Virus record (IMG/VR): IMGVR_UViG_2585427786_000006
Length of the DNA stretch: 43,020 nt
Direction: 5' to 3' (one strand)
Origin: a virus
Taxonomy: Duplodnaviria; Heunggongvirae; Uroviricota; Caudoviricetes
Positions 3,436-41,782 of the stretch are shown piece by piece. Below the pieces are notes generated by a model. It searched no databases. It saw only the letters and a program-made list of their open reading frames with translations, and was not told where the DNA came from. The first letter of the stretch is position 1. Each line of letters begins with the position of its first letter. The position numbers and the translations under genes were made by a program.

Positions 3436-3610
3436 TATCGCGTCCTCAACAATGAATTTTGTGATGCAGTGCCTGGTGCCTCCAGGTGACGTTAACCAGT
3501 TAACAATTAACGCCGGATACAGAGAATCCACCCATAACACTGTTTTTGGTTTTAACTGTTCCGCGTGCGCTTAGCCGCATTCACCGCATCACAAAATTCA
3601 CTTTAAAAAC

Positions 3611-3662
3611 GGCGGCAGAGCAGTCACGGAGTAAAACTGATACCGCCAAACGTCACCAGAAA
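3611..3662 (-). ncRNA. dicF: DicF small RNA
   Basis: Reverse complement reads TTTCTGGTGACGTTTGGCGGTATCAGTTTTACTCCGTGACTGCTCTGCCGCC followed by GTTTTT, recognised as DicF with its intrinsic terminator. Confidence 0.8.
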
Positions 3663-4828: not shown

Positions 4829-5236
4829 TTATTGATGCTTGTTGCGTTTGCGAGCCTCTAATAGCTCGGTGAACAGGCGATTAAAATTCTCAACGCGGGC
4901 GCGGAGTTCGCTGAGTTGTGCTTGTTGCTCTGATTTAGGAAGTGCGCGATACAAACGCAGCATCTCTAACTCATCTTCCGATAAGTCTAAGGCACTATCG
5001 AGTGAAACAGGGGGAGCTGGTGTTTTGTCCTCGTCGCCAAACAGTATCCAGGTTGGTGAACATTGCAATACCTCGGCGAGGCGATGCAAATTTTGCCCAC
5101 GCGGGGCTGTATGGTCACTTTCCCATAATGAAATTGATGAGCCAGATACGCCAGCAGCTTTGCTTAAACCGTTTTGACTTAAGCCTACCTGCTTACGTCT
5201 TTCTCTAATGCGTTGACCTAAAGTTTTCTCGTTCAT
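4829..5236 (-). CDS. dicA: DicA-like HTH (XRE-family) repressor (135 aa)
   Basis: N-terminal HTH; C-terminal ...LQCSPTWILFGDEDK... and ...RARVENFNRLFTELLEARKRNK recognised as DicA-like; divergent from dicC. Confidence 0.8.
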   Translation of the reverse strand: MNEKTLGQRIRERRKQVGLSQNGLSKAAGVSGSSISLWESDHTAPRGQNLHRLAEVLQCSPTWILFGDEDKTPAPPVSLDSALDLSEDELEMLRLYRALPKSEQQAQLSELRARVENFNRLFTELLEARKRNKHQ

Positions 5237-5286
5237 ATTTAGATATCTTAATAACCCTTGACTTGAGATTCCTTGAGTGATTAGCA

Positions 5287-5300
5287 TTGAGAAAACTCAA
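5287..5300. promoter_or_regulatory. putative operator in dicA-dicC divergent promoter region (TTGAGAAAACTCAA)
   Basis: Perfect 14-bp palindrome between divergent dicA and dicC starts; additional TTGAG half-sites at about 5262-5279. Confidence 0.5.
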
Positions 5301-5313
5301 TATTGGAGGTGCG

Positions 5314-5541
5314 ATGTTTAAATCAGACGTAATTAATTTTTACGGTACGAAAGCCAAAGTAGCGAAAGCTGCTGGCGTTGACCCATCTGCTGTTTCTCAA
5401 TGGCAAGAGCTGGTTCCTGAAGGTCGCGCGATGCGTCTACAGGAGGCATCTGGCGGGGAGCTTCTGTATGATCCCAAGGTTTATGACGAATATCGTAAGA
5501 CGAAGCGGGCGGGGCGGTTGAACAATGAAAATCACTCCTGA
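5314..5541 (+). CDS. dicC: DicC-like Cro-type regulator (75 aa)
   Basis: GGAGG RBS then ATG; ...LVPEGRAMRLQEASGGELLYDPKVYDEYRKTKRAGRLNNENHS recognised as DicC-like. Confidence 0.75.
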   Translation: MFKSDVINFYGTKAKVAKAAGVDPSAVSQWQELVPEGRAMRLQEASGGELLYDPKVYDEYRKTKRAGRLNNENHS

Positions 5542-6046
5542 ACAGGCTCGTGAGGCTCTGGATGCCTGGATATGTCGACCAGGAATGACACAGGAGCAGG
5601 CGACGATATTAATCACTGAAGCATTCTGGGCTTTGAAAGAGCGCCCGAACATCGATGTTCAGCGTGTCACAGATGAAGGTGGCGCGGTTGATCAGCGAGC
5701 GCTTGGCGTTAATCGAGTGAAGATATTCGAACGCTGGAAGGCTATCGACACCAGGGATAAGCGTGAAAAGTTCACGGCGCTAGTGCCTGCAATTATGGAG
5801 GCTATCCGGATTAATGATTTCAGGTTGTATCGTGAAATTAGTGACGGAAAAAGCATCACGTACATGATCGCCGGGTTAAACAAAGAATATGGCGATGTGG
5901 TGGAGTCCGGACTGCTTTTTGCTGATCCTGCCGTAGTGGATCGTGAAACTGACGAACTTATAGAAAAAGCAATTGCTTTCAAACTTGCGTATCGACAGCA
6001 ATACCAACAAAAAGCTGGATGGAATTATGAGCCTTCTTTTTGCTGA
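5525..6046 (+). CDS. putative CII-like/YdaT-family early regulator (173 aa)
   Basis: Overlaps dicC stop; resemblance to YdaT-type proteins (MKI..., REKFTALVPAIMEAI); follows the Cro-like gene. Confidence 0.4.
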   Translation: MKITPEQAREALDAWICRPGMTQEQATILITEAFWALKERPNIDVQRVTDEGGAVDQRALGVNRVKIFERWKAIDTRDKREKFTALVPAIMEAIRINDFRLYREISDGKSITYMIAGLNKEYGDVVESGLLFADPAVVDRETDELIEKAIAFKLAYRQQYQQKAGWNYEPSFC

Positions 6047-6848
6047 ACGCCCACTGGTTATAAACACACAGCTTGCGATGAAGATTGGCTTAAATGAAGC
6101 CATTGTGTTGCAGCAGTTGCATTACTGGTTGAGAGATACCAATTCCGGCATGGAATGTGATGGTGTTCGCTGGATTTACAACACAACGGAACAATGGCTG
6201 GAACAGTTCCCATTCTGGTCAGAGTCAACGTTAAAGCGCGCGTTTGCAAGTCTGAAAACGCTGGGGCTTTTGCGTTGTGAAAAGCTCAATAAATCAAAGC
6301 GCGATATGACCAATTTCTACACGATCAACTATGGGAGCGAGCTTTTAGATGGTGGCAAATTGAACGAATCCATCGGTTCAAAATGCGCCGCTCCATCAGG
6401 TCAAAATGACACGATGGAAGAGGTCAAAATGAAACGCTCCATTGGTTCAAAACGACCCAATGTCATCGGGTCAAAATGGCCTGATGATCTTACAGAGAAT
6501 ACAACAGAGATTACTACAGAGAATAAAAACACTTTTCGTCCGGAAGCTTCGCAACCGGACCTGCAGACCGCTGAACAGGATTTTTTAATCCGGAACCCCG
6601 ACGCGGTTGTGTTTAGTGCGAAAAAACGCCAGTGGGGTAGCAGGGAGGATTTGGCGTGTGCGCAGTGGATTTGGGGGCGGATCGTGAACCTTTACGAACA
6701 GGCTGCCTTTAAGGAGGACTTGTGGCAAAAGTTTTTACACAGGAAGAGCGGGAAAAAATTAAAGAGCAGGTGGTCGAACTTGTGCGCCAGAGCGGTCGCG
6801 AGACATTACGACAGTTGGAAGCTAAAACAGGTGCGACAAGATATCTGA
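6027..6848 (+). CDS. replication initiator (replisome-organizer N-terminal domain), contains origin iterons
   Basis: MSLLFAERPLVINTQLAMKIGLNEAIVLQQLHYWL... typical of phage replisome organizers; iteron array lies inside the gene as in lambda O. Confidence 0.6.
   Translation: MSLLFAERPLVINTQLAMKIGLNEAIVLQQLHYWLRDTNSGMECDGVRWIYNTTEQWLEQFPFWSESTLKRAFASLKTLGLLRCEKLNKSKRDMTNFYTINYGSELLDGGKLNESIGSKCAAPSGQNDTMEEVKMKRSIGSKRPNVIGSKWPDDLTENTTEITTENKNTFRPEASQPDLQTAEQDFLIRNPDAVVFSAKKRQWGSREDLACAQWIWGRIVNLYEQAAFKEDLWQKFLHRKSGKKLKSRWSNLCARAVARHYDSWKLKQVRQDI
6370..6479. repeat. origin iterons: five copies of about 15 bp (consensus CATCGGGTCAAAATG), followed by an AT-rich ACAGAGA-repeat segment (6480-6530)
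   Basis: Direct repeats at about 6370, 6393, 6416, 6439, 6463 spaced 23-24 bp apart, encoding repeated IGSK peptide motifs. Confidence 0.55.
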
Positions 6849-7144
6849 TGAGCATTCTTGCCAGAGAGCTGGTTGCCAGTGGTTATGTATACAACTCCGG
6901 CTACGGGTTATTCCCGTCTGAACAGGCACGAAAGGACTGGCAAAATGCCCGCAAAAAACTCTCTAGGGCGAAGGTGAAGAAACCCGCTGTGGTTGATCCG
7001 GACCTTATCTGGTCACTACCTGATGGAGAAATACGTCGCTACGACAGTCGTCTAAACATAATCTGTCGCGAGTGCCGGAAGAGTGAAGCTATGCAGCGTG
7101 TACTGGCTTTCTATCAGGGTAATTTTCAGGAGGCGGTACTGTGA
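6722..7144 (+). CDS. hypothetical protein (140 aa) with HTH-like segment, replication-module partner
   Basis: GTG start 5 nt after AAGGAGG; overlaps the 3' end of the initiator gene; upstream frame closed by TAA at 6710-6712. Confidence 0.5.
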   Translation: MAKVFTQEEREKIKEQVVELVRQSGRETLRQLEAKTGATRYLMSILARELVASGYVYNSGYGLFPSEQARKDWQNARKKLSRAKVKKPAVVDPDLIWSLPDGEIRRYDSRLNIICRECRKSEAMQRVLAFYQGNFQEAVL

Positions 7145-7201: not shown

Positions 7202-7558
7202 ATGGAAATAAAACCAGAGGATTAGTTAAGCAATATCGTTTTATTTCCGATAAAAGAGGATGACCCTCGTAATCAGGTTAATTTTCTTTATGAGCCATCG
7301 GAAAGACCATATTGCCATCACGCTTCTGTCCGGGTTGACGAAAAAGAGCGTCAGGTCCGCTGTAAAATCTGAGGTGCAGTTGTGGAGCCATTTGACTGGA
7401 TGCTCTCTGTGGCGAAAAGAGAAACCAGACTGGCAGATGATGTAAGGCTCTTGCGCCAGGAGGAACGGGAAAGACGAAAAAATATAGAAAAGCTAATTCA
7501 GATTGAGCGTAACGGGAAAGCGCGGATACGCAGGGTGACAAAATCCAGAACTGAATAA
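7202..7558 (+). pseudogene. 118-codon reading frame with strong SD, interrupted by in-frame TAG (7223-7225) and TGA (7370-7372)
   Basis: AAGGAGAGGAG then ATG at 7202; protein-like translation on both sides of each stop, with basic C-terminal coiled-coil-like tail. Confidence 0.35.
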
Positions 7559-7826: not shown

Positions 7827-8003
7827 ATGGCTGATTTTGGTTCAACTAAATACAACGTCGGTTTTGAAGAATGGCATGAACTGTTAATGGACTATGCAGA
7901 GTTACGTGGTGGCAGTGCTGCTGATGCTGAAGCATGGCGTGATGATTATGAAGCAGGAAAAACTCCGGTCGAAGCATATTGTGATGAGTGGGGCGATGAA
8001 TGA
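7827..8003 (+). CDS. hypothetical acidic small protein (58 aa)
   Basis: GAGGAAG RBS 7 nt before ATG; MADFGSTKYNVGFEEWHELL...; stop overlaps the next ATG (ATGA). Confidence 0.35.
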   Translation: MADFGSTKYNVGFEEWHELLMDYAELRGGSAADAEAWRDDYEAGKTPVEAYCDEWGDE

Positions 8004-8485
8004 GCGAGGTTAATTATCAGGAAGGGCATGAAACGGCGGGGCAAGCAAAAACAGTGGCATGGCGATATCGCTACGTGAAAAAAAGGCGTTACGGACTTTC
8101 AGGGGAAGTAGTGGTCTGGTGACTGGAAATATGTACCGAAAAAAGAGGATTGTAACGATAGGCCGAACTATGAAATTCAGGCCTTATTCACTGCCCCGCC
8201 AGTCCCGGTTACATCAGAAGAACTGGTTAAAGCTGTGCACTTTTATGAACAACTAAAACGCGAAAATCCACCAGCATCCGGAAACCTGATTACAGGTTCC
8301 CAGATAAGGCAATGAGCTACCTGGCGCAGAACGGGCTGATAAGTATGGGGAATGTTTTACGATGAATATTTAGACTAAAGAGTTTGTAACGCTATGTAAG
8401 TGATTTTTTCTGGTTTAGATATTTATATGTCCGGCTAAATTGAGGTGTGTTTAAATGTTATTGCACATTGATTGTAGGGGGAATA

Positions 8486-8665: not shown

Positions 8666-8922
8666 ATACAGCGAACTCCATTGGTTTAGTTGGATATTTA
8701 CTGTGCTGGACAAAACGGTTTGCGGGGAAATCTTAGTTAAGTAGAATGACTGCGGGTGCTTGAGGCTATCTGCCTCGGGCACGAACACCAACGGCAGGTA
8801 GAGAAAAGCCCCAGTTAACATTACGCGTCCTGCAAGACGCTTAACATTAATCTGAGGCCAATTTCATGCTAGACACATGTAGGTTAGCCTCTTACGTGCC
8901 GAAAGGCAAGGAGAAGCAGGCT

Positions 8923-9078
8923 ATGAAGCAGCAAAAGGCGATGTTAATCGCCCTGATCGTCATCTGTTTAACCGTCATAGTGACGGCACTGGTAACGAGG
9001 AAAGACCTCTGCGAGGTACGAATCCGAACCGGCCAGACGGAGGTCGCTGTCTTCACAGCTTACGAACCTGAGGAGTAA
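8923..9078 (+). CDS. hokD: Hok-family type I toxin (51 aa)
   Basis: MKQQKAMLIALIVICLTVIVTALVTRKDLCEVRIRTGQTEVAVFTAYEPEE recognised as HokD/RelF; AAGGAG RBS; in-frame upstream extension from ATG 8866. Confidence 0.8.
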   Translation: MKQQKAMLIALIVICLTVIVTALVTRKDLCEVRIRTGQTEVAVFTAYEPEE

Positions 9079-16394: not shown

Positions 16395-16757
16395 ATTAAT
16401 ATTAAATCGGATTATTTTTAGCGCTGAATGTGAAATTTAAATAAAAAGGACTCTTCCATGAGTCAAAATCCTTGAAATCTTAAGGGTAAGATAAAAGGTC
16501 ATTAGACAGAATGACACGTTTTATTAATAAATAAAGCTATTGTTTCATTCGTGTGTTTTTCTTTACAAAAGTAATCCTTGCTATGGTTGGTTAATCATGC
16601 GTTAATGGTGTTCTGGTTTGTTACAAAATTATCTGAAGCAGTCATTGTTATAATTTTATTATTTGTACCTCTTGAGATTTCCTTGTTGGTTTTTCTCTCT
16701 GATATTTTTTTTCGGACCATTCTGCCCAAGGGCTAACTTCTTCAAAAGGTAATAATG

Positions 16758-16970
16758 ATGTCTAACAAAATGACTGGTTTAGTGAAATGGTTTAACCCTG
16801 AAAAAGGTTTTGGTTTCATCACGCCGAAAGATGGTAGCAAAGATGTGTTTGTCCATTTCTCAGCTATTCAGAGCAACGATTTCAAAACGTTAACTGAGAA
16901 TCAGGAAGTCGAATTTGGTATTGAGAACGGACCTAAAGGCCCCGCGGCTGTTCATGTTGTGGCACTTTGA
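16758..16970 (+). CDS. cspI: cold-shock protein CspI-like (70 aa)
   Basis: [39 protein letters not shown]... with RNP motifs; long AT-rich 5' leader upstream. Confidence 0.85.
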
Positions 16971-17169
16971 GGTAGAAAATATTACAAACCATATTCACTT
17001 TAGATGCCCGTGTTGCCATGGTTCTCAGTATAGAACATCATCTTTTGATGTTTCTGACAGGAATCCTTTCGGGGCAAAATGTATCTTTTGTAAATCAATG
17101 ATGATTACATTTGATAATATTTCACAATACTTAAATGTTAGCCGTCTGTCGTTAGATTTAAGAAAGTGA
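16954..17169 (+). CDS. YnfN-like Cys-rich small protein
   Basis: ...[54 protein letters not shown]; ATG overlapping the cspI 3' end; start uncertain. Confidence 0.4.
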
Positions 17170-19418: not shown

Positions 19419-21518
19419 ATGGGTTTTTCATCAGCCCGAAATTTGGGAAGGGACATATCGGCAGGATTTTCCCCACCACGTCGCATGCCGATTTCGGAGG
19501 CTGTTAAAAAATTCATGCGTGTTCCCAAGGGGGCTGGTAACTCGGTGCCATGGGATCCTGAACTGACACCCTACATCATTGAGCCCATGAACTGCCTGGC
19601 ATCGCGTGAATACGATGCGGTGATTTTTGTTGGTCCTGCGCGAACAGGGAAGACCATTGGTCTGATCGATGGATGGATTGTCTATACCATCGTTTGCGAT
19701 CCTTCGGACATGCTCGTTGTGCAGATGACCGAAGATAAGGCCCGCGAGCATTCAAAAAAGCGCCTCGACAGAACGTTCAGAAGCAGTGCGGCGGTAAAGA
19801 AAAGAATGAGTCCACGTCGTAATGACAATAATGTCCATGATAAGACGTTCAGGGATGGCTCGTTCCTTAAAATTGGTTGGCCCTCGGTCAACATTATGTC
19901 GTCGTCGGATTACCGGTTTGTCGCCTTAACCGATTACGACCGTTTTCCGGAGAATATCGACAGCGAGGGTGATGGTTTCTCCCTGGCCTCAAAACGTACC
20001 ACCACATTTATGTCCGCCGGGATGACTCTGGTGGAGAGCTCGCCGGGACGTGACATCTGCGACAGCAAATGGCGACGTAAGTCGCCTCATGAAGCGCCAC
20101 CGACGACTGGTATTCTTTCCCTTTACAATCGTGGTGACCGCCGCCGCTGGTACTGGCCATGTCCGCACTGCGGTGAATATTTTCAGCCAGCCATGGATGC
20201 CATGACCGGCTACCGTAATGAACCGGATCCCTTTAAAGCCAGTGAGGCGGCGTATCTACTTTGCCCGCACTGCAGCGGCATTATCACTGCGGAGAAAAAG
20301 CGTGAGCTCAATAGTGCAGGAGTCTGGTTGCGTGAAGGTCAGGTCATTGATTGTAACGGCAACGTTTCCGGTGAACCGCGCCGCTCCCGTATCGCCAGTT
20401 TCTGGATGGAAGGGCCAGCTGCTGCGTATCAGACCTGGGCGCAACTGGTTTACAAATTACTGACTGCAGAACAGGAGTATGAAGCGACAGGAAGTGAAGA
20501 AACACTCAGGGCGGTTATCAACACCGACTGGGGATTACCTTATCTTCCCCGCGCCAGCATGGAGCAACGAAAAAGTGAACTGCTTGAGCAGCGGGCAGAG
20601 CCAGTTCCTTCCCGCAGTGTGCCAGATGGCGTTAATTTTCTTGTGGCGACAGTGGATGTGCAGGCGGGACGTCATCGCCGTTTTGTGGTTCAGGTAACGG
20701 GCTATGGCAGCCGTGGCGAACGCTGGATTATTGATCGTTACAACATCACGCAGTCATTGCGCGGTGACAGCGACGGGGAGAGCCAGCGAATTGATCCGGC
20801 CAGCTATCCGGAAGACTGGGATGTCCTGCTGACGGATGTTTTTCATAAAAGCTGGCCGCTGGCCTCCGATCCTTCTCAACAAATGCGACTGATGGCAATG
20901 GCGGTGGACTCCGGCGGTGAAGACGGGGTCACTGATAATGCCTATAAATTCTGGCGTCGTTGCCGTCGTGATGGCCTTGGTAAACGTATTTACCTGTTTA
21001 AGGGCGACAGCATCCGGCGCGCAAAACTGATCACCCGTACATTCCCTGATAACACCGGACGAACGGGCCGACGGGCGCAGGCCGCAGGTGATGTGCCGCT
21101 CTGGCTTCTTCAGACGGATGCACTGAAAGACCGGGTGAATAACGCGTTATGGCGTGACTCGCCAGGTCCCGGCTATGTGCATTTCCCTGACTGGCTGGGG
21201 AGCTGGTTTTACGACGAACTGACGTATGAAGAGCGGAGCAGTGACGGGAAATGGAGTAAGCCGGGTCGCGGTGCCAACGAAGCTTTTGACCTGATGGTGT
21301 ATGCCGAGGCTCTGGTCATTCTGCATGGATACGAAAAGATCCGCTGGCCGGATGCACCGGAGTGGGCGAGCCGGGAAACCTGGCTGGAGTGTGTCCCGGA
21401 CAGTACCGAACCGTCATCCTCACCGGAACCGGTATCCACGCCTGTTAAAAAACAAAAACGGAAGAAAACAGTAACTGACGATGTTAACCCCTGGCTGACT
21501 TCCGGAGGATGGTTATGA
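19419..21518 (+). CDS. terminase large subunit (gpA-like), 699 aa
   Basis: Walker A GPARTGKT; lambda A-like N-terminus; TAGGAGG RBS. Confidence 0.9.
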   Translation: MGFSSARNLGRDISAGFSPPRRMPISEAVKKFMRVPKGAGNSVPWDPELTPYIIEPMNCLASREYDAVIFVGPARTGKTIGLIDGWIVYTIVCDPSDMLVVQMTEDKAREHSKKRLDRTFRSSAAVKKRMSPRRNDNNVHDKTFRDGSFLKIGWPSVNIMSSSDYRFVALTDYDRFPENIDSEGDGFSLASKRTTTFMSAGMTLVESSPGRDICDSKWRRKSPHEAPPTTGILSLYNRGDRRRWYWPCPHCGEYFQPAMDAMTGYRNEPDPFKASEAAYLLCPHCSGIITAEKKRELNSAGVWLREGQVIDCNGNVSGEPRRSRIASFWMEGPAAAYQTWAQLVYKLLTAEQEYEATGSEETLRAVINTDWGLPYLPRASMEQRKSELLEQRAEPVPSRSVPDGVNFLVATVDVQAGRHRRFVVQVTGYGSRGERWIIDRYNITQSLRGDSDGESQRIDPASYPEDWDVLLTDVFHKSWPLASDPSQQMRLMAMAVDSGGEDGVTDNAYKFWRRCRRDGLGKRIYLFKGDSIRRAKLITRTFPDNTGRTGRRAQAAGDVPLWLLQTDALKDRVNNALWRDSPGPGYVHFPDWLGSWFYDELTYEERSSDGKWSKPGRGANEAFDLMVYAEALVILHGYEKIRWPDAPEWASRETWLECVPDSTEPSSSPEPVSTPVKKQKRKKTVTDDVNPWLTSGGWL

Positions 21519-33847: not shown

Positions 33848-37249
<3,402 letters not shown>

Positions 37250-37979: not shown

Positions 37980-40900
37980 ATGGCAGTAAAAATTTCAGGT
38001 GTACTGAAAGACGGCACAGGAAAACCGGTACAGAACTGCACAATCCAGCTGAAAGCAAAACGTAACAGTACCACGGTGGTGGTGAACACGCTGGCATCTG
38101 AAAATCCGGATGAAGCCGGGCGTTACAGTATGGACGTTGAGTACGGTCAGTACAGCGTCAGTCTGTTGGTGGAAGGATTCCCGCCGTCACATGCCGGGAC
38201 CATCACAGTGTATGAAGATTCCCGACCCGGTACGCTGAATGATTTTCTCGGTGCCATGACGGAGGATGATGCCCGTCCGGAGGCACTGCGCCGTTTTGAG
38301 CTGATGGTGGAAGAGGTGGCGCGTAACGCGTCCGTGGTGGCACAGAACACGGCAGCCGCGAAGAAGTCAGCCAGTGATGCCAGCACATCAGCCCGTGAGG
38401 CGGCAACCCATGCGACTGATGCTGCAGGCTCAGCACGCGCAGCCAGCACGTCAGCCGGACAGGCCGCGTCGTCGGCTCAGTCAGCGACTTCCAGCGCAGG
38501 AACGGCATCAACAAAGGCTACTGAAGCATCAAAAAGTGCTGCCGCTGCAGAGTCCTCAAAAAGCGCGGCAGCTACCAGTGCCAGTGCCGCGAAAACGTCA
38601 GAAACGAATGCTGCAGCGTCACAACAATCAGCAGCCACTTCTGCATCCACCGCAACTACGAAAGCGTCAGAAGCTGCCACCTCAGCCCGGGATGCGGCGG
38701 CTTCAAAAGAGGCGGCAAAATCATCAGAAACGAACGCATCCTCGAGCGCCAGTAGCGCAGCTTCCTCGGCAACAGCGGCAGGAAATTCCGCGAAGGCGGC
38801 AAAAACGTCAGAGACGAACGCCAGGTCTTCTGAAACGGCAGCGGGACAGAGCGCCTCGGCTGCGGCAGGCTCAAAAACAGCGGCTGCGTCGTCTGCCAGT
38901 GCAGCGTCAACAAGTGCCGGGCAGGCCTCAGCCAGTGCCACCGCCGCCGGAAAATCGGCAGAAAGCGCCGCATCGTCTGCTTCAACAGCCACAACGAAGG
39001 CTGGCGAAGCCACTGAACAGGCCAGCGCAGCAGCGAGGTCTGCTTCCGCAGCGAAGACATCCGAAACGAACGCGAAAGCGTCGGAAACCAGCGCAGAATC
39101 CTCAAAAACGGCTGCCGCATCGTCAGCCAGTTCGGCGTCGTCATCGGCATCATCTGCGTCTGCTTCAAAAGATGAGGCGACCAGACAGGCGTCAGCAGCG
39201 AAGAGCAGCGCCACGACGGCATCCACGAAGGCAACAGAGGCGGCAGGCAGTGCGACGGCAGCATCTCAGAGCAAAACTGCTGCTGAATCCGCTGCGACCC
39301 GTGCGGAAGCTGCTGCTGATCGTGCTGAAGAGATTGCCGGTGCAGTTGCGATGGAAGACGCAAGCCTTACAACTAAAGGTGTTGTGAAACTTAGCAGTGC
39401 TGTTGATAGCACCAGTGAATCGCTGGCCGCAACGCCAAAAGCAGTTAAAGCAGCCAATGACAATGCGAATAGCAGGGTGCCATCTAACCGAAAAGTTAAC
39501 GGAAAAGCACTGACTGCGGATATAACATTAACGCCGAAAGATATTGGTACTTTAAATTCAGTAACGATGTCTTTCTCTGGCGGGGCTGGGTGGTTCAAAC
39601 TGGCTACGGTTACCATGCCACAAGCGAGTTCCATCGTTTACATCGCATTGATTGGTGGCGCTGGTTACAACGTCGGTTCCCCACATCAGGCAGGCATTTC
39701 AGAACTGGTTCTACGAGCAGGCAATGGAAACCCCAAAGGAATTACCGGGGCTTTGTGGAAGCGTACAGCCGTCGGATTAACGAATTTCGCCTGGATCAAC
39801 ACATCCGGCGATACATATGATATTTACGTTGAGATTGGCAATTATGCGACTCGTGTAAATATCCATTGGGATTGTACTGCAAATGCGACAGTTTCTATTT
39901 ATACATCGCCAACATATTCAGCGAGTAAGCCTTCCAGCGTTACCGATGGTGTTGTTTATACGATGTATAGCACACATCAGAAACCGACGCCGTTAGATAT
40001 TGGAGCACTGCCAACAACCGGAGGAACAGTTTCAGGTCCGTTGTCTGTTACAGGTGGATTAACTGGTTCATTGAATGGTAATGCAAGTACAGCCACGAAA
40101 TTGCAGACGGCAAGATCTATCGGTGGAGTTGTTTTCGACGGTTCTGCAAATATTAACCTTCCAGGTGTAAACACTACGGGTAATCAGAACACCACTGGTA
40201 ATGCTGCAACTGCTACAAAACTTCAGACTGCAAGAAAAATATCCGGTGTTCCATTTGATGGTTCTACTGATATCACTTTAACCGCCGCGCATGTGGCTGC
40301 TTTTGCCAGAAGAGCAACGGATGCGTATGCCGATGCGGATGGGGGCGTTCCATGGAATGCCGAATCAGGCGCTTACAATGTCACCCGCTCTGGCGACAGC
40401 TATATTCTGGTTAACTTCTATACCGGAGTCGGAAGTTGCCGGACCTTGCAGATGAAGGCGCATTACAGAAATGGTGGTCTGTTCTACCGTTCTTCAAGAG
40501 ACGGTTATGGTTTTGAAAGTGGTTGGGCGCAGCTTTACACCTCGGCTCATCCTCCTGCAGAGTTTTATCCAGTCGGTGCACCAATCCCGTGGCCATCAGA
40601 TACCGTTCCGTCTGGTTATGCCCTGATGCAGGGGCAGACTTTTGACAAATCTGCCTACCCAAAACTTGCAGCCGCTTATCCGTCAGGCGTGATCCCTGAT
40701 ATGCGTGGCTGGACGATTAAGGGCAAACCTGCCAGTGGTCGAGCCGTATTATCTCAGGAACAGGACGGCATTAAATCGCACACCCACAGCGCCAGCGCAT
40801 CCAGTACGGATTTGGGGACGAAAAACACATCGTCGTTTGATTACGGCACTAAATCCACGAATAACACCGGGGCGCATACCCATAGTGTTAGCGGTACGGC

Positions 40901-41207: not shown

Positions 41208-41782
41208 TGGTATTCAGAATGAGTGAACAACCACGGACCATAACAATTTATAATCTGCTGGCCGGAACTAATGAATTTATTGGTGAAGGTGATGCATATA
41301 TTCCGCCTCATACAGGTCTGCCAGCAAACAGTACCGATATTGCACCGCCAGATATTCCGGCAGGCTTCGTGGCTGTTTTCAACAGTGATGAGGCATCGTG
41401 GCATCTCGTTGAAGATCATCGGGGTAAAACGGTTTATGACGTGGCTTCCGGCGACGCGTTATTTATTTCTGAACTCGGTCCGTTACCGGAAAATGTTACC
41501 TGGTTATCGCCGGAAGGGGAGTTTCAGAAGTGGAACGGCACAGCCTGGGTGAAGGATACGGAAGCAGAAAAACTGTTCCGGATCCGGGAGGCGGAAGAAA
41601 CAAAAAACAACCTGATGCAGGTAGCCAGTGAGCATATTGCGCCGCTTCAGGATGCTGCAGATCTGGAAATTGCAACGGAGGAAGAAATCTCGTTGCTGGA
41701 AGCATGGAAAAAGTATCGGGTATTGCTGAACCGTGTTGATACGTCAACTTCACAGGATATTGAATGGCCAGCACTGCCGTAG
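41207..41782 (+). CDS. tail fiber assembly protein (Tfa)
   Basis: M(V/A)[42 protein letters not shown]...; TAATG overlap with stf stop. Confidence 0.85.

Follow-up and report, generated by a model that had tools for sequence, protein, structure and literature searches.

In this report, we describe a compact element inside the replication initiator gene of a 43,020-nucleotide stretch of viral DNA (IMG/VR record IMGVR_UViG_2585427786_000006, hereafter called the window), which belongs to a Qin-like lambdoid prophage of E. coli. The initiator open reading frame (ORF) extends from position 6027 to 6848, and three features follow one another within it: an array of six iterons spaced by 23–24 bp on the plus strand (6348–6486), an AT-rich, purine-skewed tract with three 12-bp repeats, also on the plus strand (6487–6532), and a 23-bp palindrome (6538–6560). 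The encoded protein begins with a winged-helix N-terminal domain (N-domain, approximately 6027–6340), continues through an origin-encoded linker (6348–6532), and retains the start only of a C-terminal domain resembling that of lambda O. The architecture and the comparative signals presented below make it very probable that 6348–6560 is the vegetative replication origin of this prophage, laid out on the lambda plan within the initiator gene, at the point where the two protein domains meet.

The Iteron Array

The array was delimited by repeat finding and by its excess over chance. A general repeat search returned a family of five copies with start-to-start distances of 23, 23, 23, and 24 bp, and a period of 23 was obtained independently with Tandem Repeats Finder. 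The iteron core is GGTCAAAATGACC, and the register was set around the core GGTYCAAAAYG. The five units are found at 6371–6393 (CATCGGTTCAAAATGCGCCGCTC), 6394–6416 (CATCAGGTCAAAATGACACGATG), 6417–6439 (GAAGAGGTCAAAATGAAACGCTC), 6440–6462 (CATTGGTTCAAAACGACCCAATG), and 6464–6486 (CATCGGGTCAAAATGGCCTGATG). A degenerate sixth unit (6348–6370, GGCAAATTGAAC) lies in phase upstream of the other five, and in relatives it is present as a well-kept copy. Each iteron has dyad symmetry with a central A-tract, and units 2, 4, and 5 are imperfect palindromes of 23 bp that fit the pattern CATCnGGTCA-AAA-TGACCnGATG. Four perfect matches to the degenerate 15-mer CATYNGKTCAAAAYG occur in the 43-kb window, and all four fall within the 108-bp iteron stretch. 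With up to two mismatches allowed, the 15-mer has 10 matches, compared with 3.3 ± 1.9 in shuffled sequences, and none of 100 shuffles reached 10. The five direct repeats at 23–24 bp that an earlier note on this DNA had reported were thus borne out by the repeat search, by Tandem Repeats Finder, and by the shuffles, and a sixth, degenerate unit was added. The origin in the window differs from those of phages HannyBb and mEp460_ev081 at 2–3 of 206 positions.

The translation of the window reads units 1–5 as SIGSK, PSGQN, EEVKM, SIGSK, and VIGSK. The proposal that the repeats encode a recurring IGSK motif is correct for units 1, 4, and 5 and incorrect for units 2 and 3. A 23-bp period shifts the reading frame from one unit to the next, so that all three frames are used and IGSK appears in just three of the five. 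The units are likewise read in at least two frames in 49 of 55 related loci. In 10 enterobacterial relatives, the mean pairwise identities at codon positions 1, 2, and 3 of the iterons were 0.78, 0.84, and 0.78, respectively, compared with 0.84, 0.92, and 0.55 for the N-domain, the latter being the usual pattern for a coding sequence. Selection on the iterons thus acts on the DNA rather than on the peptide, since the units are read in three frames and conservation at the third codon position is no lower than at the first and second. IGSK is what the DNA repeat happens to encode in one of the three frames. Directly downstream of the 12-bp repeats, the identity among the same 10 relatives drops to 0.42, which marks a mosaic breakpoint.

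The 12-bp Repeats

The tract at 6487–6532, the presumed DNA-unwinding element, contains three 12-bp ACAGAGAnTAC units between 6491 and 6526: TACAGAGAATAC (6491–6502), AACAGAGATTAC (6503–6514), and TACAGAGAATAA (6515–6526). A period of 12 was also returned by Tandem Repeats Finder. The GC content of the tract is 0.30 and 65% of the bases on the top strand are purines. Of all 40-bp stretches of the gene, the least stable lies in this tract (−44.3 kcal/mol, compared with a mean of −54.4 ± 3.5 kcal/mol, a difference of about 2.9 standard deviations), and this value falls within the top 2.2% for the whole window. The AT-rich tract with ACAGAGA repeats that had been noticed after the iterons is therefore real.

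The consensus of the 12-mers is (C/T)(T/A)ACAGAGAnTA, and in most loci the first CAGAGA is found 18–21 bp past the last iteron core. In nearly all loci the 12-mers share a single frame (Thr-Glu-x-Thr), in which the third codon, A-n-T, specifies Asn, Ile, Thr, or Ser. The conservation at codon positions 1, 2, and 3 in the 10 enterobacterial relatives was determined to be 0.91, 0.73, and 0.91, respectively, and the variable position is thus the second, where substitutions change the amino acid. The glutamate codon within the 12-mers is GAG in a ratio of 150:18 (89%), compared with 816:1026 (44%) elsewhere in the same ORFs. This bias is found in both Proteobacteria (Fisher p ~1e-19) and Bacillota (7e-10). 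Across phyla, from Proteobacteria to Bacillota, the 12-mers are better conserved than the iterons.

A search with the tandem 12-mer pattern alone identified 80 viral contigs, and in nearly all of them the pattern is located approximately 140–200 codons into an ORF of 250–460 codons. Most of the protein parts upstream of the 12-mers belong to a single cluster of 64, that of the window type; a second cluster has 8 members, and two parts are singletons. The downstream parts form 16 clusters. The smaller N-terminal cluster is probably remotely homologous to the window type, as suggested by an hhalign probability of 87.6% (E 3.5e-6). In the Stx2a-converting phage Stx2_14040 (L174, 1080–1260), the gene annotated as “replication protein O” encodes a different N-terminal domain and contains different iterons, of a GGGAAA type. 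This gene carries four ACAGAGAnTAC 12-mers that are 97.5% identical to positions 6486–6525 of the window over 40 bp, and it is followed by a gene for a DnaB-like helicase.

The Right Palindrome

The palindrome at 6538–6560, GTCCGGAAGC-TTC-GCAACCGGAC, forms 8 of 10 pairs in the window and is better paired in relatives. In other Enterobacterales it is kept as GTCmGGTTGC-nnn-GCAACCmGAC; among sequences chosen for having the palindrome, so that the pattern is no more than supportive, 88.6% of the cells are paired, and one of the pairs is seen as GC, CG, and UA. It occupies the position that an inverted repeat has in lambda, to the right of the AT-rich tract there. Two loci in Edwardsiella and Scandinavium prophages (L104, approximately 2060–2095, and L130) combine an N-domain and iterons of the window type with the right arm of lambda itself, GAATTCTGGCGAATCC, to the right of the 12-mers. 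Origin modules have thus been exchanged by recombination, with the breakpoint exactly at the AT-rich tract.

The N-Terminal Domain and Its Probable Recognition of the Iterons

The family of the initiator N-domain contains 10,316 cluster representatives at E ≤ 1e-3 and 4,545 at E ≤ 1e-10, and no informative family was found for it in Pfam or NCBIfam. We compared 88 related loci from phages and prophages of Enterobacterales, Pseudomonas, Comamonas, Acinetobacter, Gilliamella, Hydrogenimonas, Staphylococcus, Bacillus, Geobacillus, and Limosilactobacillus. The strongest autocorrelation directly after the N-domain occurs at a lag of 22–24 bp in 73 of the 88 loci, where about 15% would be expected by chance, and a lag of 23 is the best in 44. 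The C-terminal domains differ among the N-domain relatives that carry the array.

The arms that flank the CAnnnTG center of the iterons are complementary to the extent of 0.54/0.47/0.56, compared with 0.31/0.34/0.43 ± 0.02 after shuffling. The arm pairs also covary between lineages and are found as GGTCA/TGACC, GGGCA/TGCCC, GGACA/TGTCC, GTGCA/TGCAC, and GGATCA/TGATCC. The identity of residue 67 of the N-domain follows that of the base at core position −1, such that Ser pairs with T (35 of 38 loci), Asp with G (22 of 22), and Lys with A (5 of 5). N-domains of the Lys type are as much as 88% identical to those of the Asp type, and at least the Lys/Asp switch is therefore recent.

Residue 67 directly precedes Thr68-x-Lys-Arg, which is invariant and belongs to the predicted recognition helix. 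The AlphaFold2 (AF2) model of the N-domain is a winged helix-turn-helix with a predicted local distance difference test (pLDDT) score of 84. The nearest solved folds are the N-terminal domains of RepA_N initiators, including a complex of Rep with iteron DNA (4pql, 5kbj, and 4pt7). From these patterns we infer that the iterons are the likely binding sites for a dimer of the winged-helix N-domain.

Two variations on this arrangement were observed. Many N-domain relatives (P0125–P0216) are proteins of 400–880 residues that carry two tandem copies of the domain, unlike the phage initiators of approximately 300 residues. In two Geobacillus prophages (L155 and L158, approximately 1850–2050), at least eight units of about 21 bp, of the GTTCAAGATG type, stand ahead of the usual iterons, and these expanded arrays result in much longer linkers and in ORFs of 347–439 codons.

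Truncation of the Initiator and Decay of the Prophage

Phages HannyBb and mEp460_ev081 are 98.7–99.5% identical to the window up to position 6707. Relative to both, 311 bp are missing from the window at the junction 6707|6708, which corresponds to 3808|4120 of the HannyBb locus (L001). The deletion takes initiator residues 228–321 (the last 94 of 321) and the stop codon, together with the spacer that separates the initiator from the DUF977 gene. What is left on the plus strand are 227 native codons (6027–6707), followed by 47 out-of-frame residues up to the stop at 6848. No microhomology was seen at the deletion junction, and the deletion is absent from all 172 fetched loci. The deletion allele, recognized as one contiguous match, is found in 6 of the 30 best-scoring E. 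coli records, which is a count over those records in a search that joins matching pieces and not an allele frequency; in the remaining top-ranked records, which have the intact gene, the match is split into two pieces separated by 311 bp.

The Prokaryotic Genome Annotation Pipeline (PGAP) lists this allele, as it occurs in E. coli 2018-06-4CC, as a pseudogene “missing C-terminus”, and there it also marks the terminase and gpJ genes of the Qin-like prophage as containing internal stops. The repeats had been placed inside an initiator coding sequence, which is true of their location; the gene itself is a pseudogene in the window by virtue of the 311-bp deletion and the PGAP call. In a closely related E. 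coli chromosome (approximately 1,000 mismatches, ungapped over 43,020 bases), PGAP annotates internal stops in the genes for the terminase large subunit (19419–21518) and the tail-tip protein J (33851–37249), and it flags two small early genes (7235–7558 and 8000–8365) as interrupted or frameshifted. The decay of the prophage extends to several modules besides replication, the stops being those annotated in the related chromosome rather than read in the sequence of the window itself.

The initiator matches PHROG 391, “replication initiation O-like”. The protein from the window covers profile positions 11–213 (4.4e-45), and the intact homologue covers positions 11–298 of 298 (8.5e-92), a full-length match. 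The intact initiator ends in ...VNHISEPDTEIPPGFRG, which is encoded in the segment deleted from the window (HannyBb L001, 4031–4090). The C-terminal tail of E. coli DnaT, ...VNTVSEPDSQIPPGFRG (PDB 2ru8, 6aep, and 9zbt_D; E ~7e-4), is almost the same as this ending and was the sole match in a sequence search of the PDB with the initiator. The DnaT-like tail probably explains the name “Primosomal protein I” given by RAST, and its sequence suggests that it may help to recruit the host helicase-loading machinery in these lambdoid phages that lack P. Since the deletion removes residues 228–321 of the initiator, and other genes of the prophage are pseudogenes, the origin is probably orphaned and most likely cannot fire on its own. 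The cis-element is intact, and only an initiator of matching specificity, supplied in trans, could activate it.

Gene Context

The immunity and early-right region upstream of the initiator (4829–6046) contains the genes for a CI-type repressor (4829–5287, minus strand), a Cro-like protein (5287–5541, plus strand), and a YdaT/cII-like protein (5525–6046, plus strand). This order places the initiator in a lambdoid early-right operon. A putative pR-like promoter was identified upstream of the cro-like gene (5258–5287, plus strand) as a consensus match only, and the scan for promoters and terminators gave counts at or below those for shuffled sequences. Transcription from this site would cross the cro-like gene, the YdaT/cII-like gene, and the initiator gene, and hence the origin. 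The position of lambda P is occupied by a gene for a DUF977 protein (“Ren-like”, LygF; 6722–7144, plus strand).

The Qin-like prophage carries dicB, DicF, hokD/sok, rem, ydfU, essD, rrrQ, cspI, and tfaQ. Four RNA families from Rfam were found above the gathering score: the DicF small RNA (3610–3661, minus strand), the sok antitoxin RNA beside hokD (8754–8928, plus strand), a cspA-type thermoregulator upstream of cspI (16600–17016, plus strand), and an IS009 RNA (41550–41748, plus strand). These four RNAs are typical cargo of Qin prophages. No RNA family from Rfam overlaps the origin region, and a tRNA scan returned no tRNA genes.

Comparison with Known Origins

An origin located inside the initiator gene itself is an ordinary and already known kind of element, as in phage lambda. 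In the early-right operon of lambda, the initiator gene has the corresponding position, behind cro- and cII-like genes. The iterons occupy codons ~117–145 of lambda O and codons ~108–154 here, in both cases at the junction of the N- and C-terminal domains. The four lambda iterons are annotated at 39034, 39054, 39078, and 39101, with a spacing of 20, 24, and 23 bp, compared with 23–24 bp in the window, and they share the 9-mer TCAAAACGA with unit 4. In both origins, dyad-symmetric iterons with a central A-tract are followed by a purine-skewed, AT-rich tract; the inverted repeat that comes next in lambda has a possible counterpart in the palindrome at 6538–6560. The C-terminal domains are homologous, with residues 142–294 of the intact protein being 34% identical to residues 130–270 of lambda O (E 1e-26), although the window keeps only the residues up to 227. 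The two systems differ in their iteron arms, which are CCCTC/GAGGG in lambda and GGTCA/TGACC in the window, and in their AT-rich tracts, since that of the window is made of sequence-conserved 12-mers, unlike that of lambda. In lambda, O is followed by P, whereas the window has the DUF977 gene instead; the intact protein of the window type carries the DnaT-like tail, and the gene in the window is truncated. The lambda O/ori arrangement proposed in the earlier note is thus upheld for position, spacing, dyad symmetry, and homology of the C-terminal domain, but the N-domain is not that of lambda O and no P gene follows. Among the lambdoid phages, Stx phages have six-iteron origins of the same class as ori-lambda (PMC7466680).

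The initiators of RepA_N plasmids (pSK41 RepA; PDB 4pql, 4pt7, and 5kbj) likewise combine an N-terminal winged helix of approximately 115–120 residues with an exchangeable, host-specific C-terminal domain. Their Rep boxes are central in their own rep gene, as are the iterons here (PMC5703833), and the central segment of the protein is poorly conserved and origin-encoded. They differ from the window in being plasmid replicons whose C-terminal domain binds DnaG, and a 12-mer CAGAGA tract is not described for RepA_N. The initiator has no match to the RepA_N family PF06970 in Pfam at E values up to 1.

The same N-domain is present at 46–76% identity in PHROG 391 and in related phage proteins annotated as “O-like” or “DnaD-like”, for example those of Staphylococcus Triavirus phages and of Bacillus phage TP21-L. 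The same array follows at 22–23 bp, with GGTCAAAATGACC in the S. aureus phages as well, and the CAGAGA 12-mers begin 20 bp past the last iteron. The C-terminal domains differ; the staphylococcal protein has a DnaB_2/DnaD-like domain (PF07261) and others have further types. For PHROG 391 and its relatives, which are annotation-level families, no described origin was found.

The 13-mers of oriC and of the RK2 oriV are also short, tandem, AT-rich repeats of conserved sequence that abut the initiator sites, and there the initiator takes hold of one particular strand once the DNA-unwinding element has opened (PMC5043065). The putative unwinding repeats in the window differ from these in motif and period (12 bp, ACAGAGAnTAC) and in lying within a coding sequence.

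Discussion

If the reading of 6348–6560 as a replication origin is correct, initiation in a phage with the intact gene might proceed as follows. Dimers of the N-domain would bind the five or six 23-bp dyad iterons, each with a central A-tract and spaced at 23 bp, or approximately 2.2 helical turns, as suggested by the covariation of protein and DNA. By analogy with lambda O and RepA_N, a complex resembling the “O-some” would then bend and stress the DNA, and the abutting ACAGAGAnTAC tract (30% GC, purine-skewed, and the least stable part of the gene) would melt. The C-terminal domain, which resembles that of lambda O and ends in the DnaT-like tail, would bring in the host helicase.

Several points weigh against this reading. 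There is no experiment on any member of this initiator family in the searchable literature, and the function as an origin is deduced from the architecture and the comparative signals. The same literature contained nothing relevant on the iteron or 12-mer strings, mEp460, HannyBb, ydaU, or oriJ. The N-domains of the window protein and of its intact homologue have no match to PF04492, whereas lambda O matches it at 5.7e-36, and the hhalign probability against the N-domain of lambda O is 0.05%; homology between the two N-domains was ruled out on these grounds. The similarity of the N-domain model to the RepA_N fold is weak, with a template modeling (TM) score of ~0.5 and E values of 4e-3 to 4e-2. 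The counts that relate residue 67 to the base at −1 are not phylogenetically independent, and the Ser and Asp classes may each represent one or a few clades. The palindrome at 6538–6560 is imperfect in the window. No P, DnaC-like loader, or helicase gene follows the initiator, the next gene being that for DUF977 in the window, in HannyBb, and in mEp460_ev081. Finally, the DnaA box TTATNCACA has 37 matches in the window with up to one mismatch, compared with 36.4 expected, and none of them are in 6300–6600.

It could be argued that the repeats matter only as coding sequence, for a repetitive and flexible linker (IGSK..., TENTTEITTEN) between two domains, and that the DNA itself has no role. The region does lie between two folded domains, the 12-mers are in the same frame nearly everywhere, and three of the five iterons encode xIGSK. 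The iterons, however, are read in three frames, with conservation at the third codon position matching that at the first and second, and the arms of each unit are complementary and covary. The 12-mers vary at the second codon position, where the amino acid is changed, while the synonymous choice of GAG is fixed at 89% against 44%, even in Bacillota. The explanation as a peptide repeat was rejected on this evidence from frames and codons, and we regard a DNA-independent linker as scarcely credible. Plasmid iterons have dual roles in initiation and regulation, and the repeats could be initiator sites that serve mainly for autoregulation, for control of copy number by titration or handcuffing, or as a decoy for the initiators of superinfecting phages. 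The cis-element is intact although the gene is broken, and two studies report that ectopic lambda iterons inhibit homologous phages (PMC3349717 and PMC4488673). The intactness of the iterons is explained equally well by a recent deletion, and one chromosomal copy would be a weak titrator. Moreover, an unstable 12-mer tract that is invariably 18–21 bp from the last iteron and a lambda-like right palindrome are features of an origin rather than of an operator. A mainly regulatory role is therefore improbable.

Within the interpretation of 6348–6560 as an origin, a separate question is whether it is still active in the window, either because the 227-residue truncated initiator, with its 47 out-of-frame residues, suffices or because a host factor does. 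In favor of residual activity, the N-terminal part of the initiator is by itself sufficient for origin binding and bending in the RepA_N (PMC5703833) and lambda (PMC7466680) systems. Against it, the deletion takes the part of the C-terminal domain that is best conserved with lambda O, together with the DnaT-like tail, PGAP calls the gene a pseudogene, and further disabling mutations are found in the terminase and gpJ genes of the prophage. The C-terminal part of lambda O is the one that recruits P-DnaB. An active origin in the window is thus unlikely. The suggestion that the repeats identify the likely origin consequently stands for the cis-element and probably not for a working replicon, given an initiator without its 94 C-terminal residues.

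We infer that the tract of 12-mers is the DNA-unwinding element, and by analogy with the 13-mers of oriC or RK2 it possibly also supports a sequence-specific capture of a single strand. The ACAGAGAnTAC repeats could even be a specific and previously undescribed origin element, a sequence-defined site for unwinding or loading, a proposal that we advance tentatively and with some doubt. It is prompted by the fixed distance of 18–21 bp, by the spread from Proteobacteria to Bacillota, and by selection at the level of the DNA in spite of differing iterons, N-domain subtypes, and C-terminal domains. If this proposal is true, a highly conserved reader is needed, for example a single-strand-binding surface of the initiator superfamily or a universal component of the host replisome.

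Conclusions

We have now been able to locate the probable origin of a Qin-like prophage whose replication module appears to be dead in its trans-acting function and is intact in cis. This state matters for judging the amplification and rescue of the prophage and its interference with related phages. No description of the conservation of the origin cassette across phyla, of the residue/base covariation, or of the DNA-level conservation of the 12-mers was found in the searchable literature. An N-domain with approximately 10,000 cluster representatives and no Pfam model is nearly always accompanied, among the ~88 loci examined, by a predictable origin in the same place, and this rule may help to annotate origins in other members of the family. 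Two testable hypotheses follow from the analysis: a relation of one residue to one base in specificity, and an unwinding tract of 12-mers that is conserved as DNA. If the former is true, the relation between residue 67 and the base at −1 (Ser-T, Asp-G, and Lys-A) would constitute a recognition code for predicting and re-engineering the specificity of these origins.

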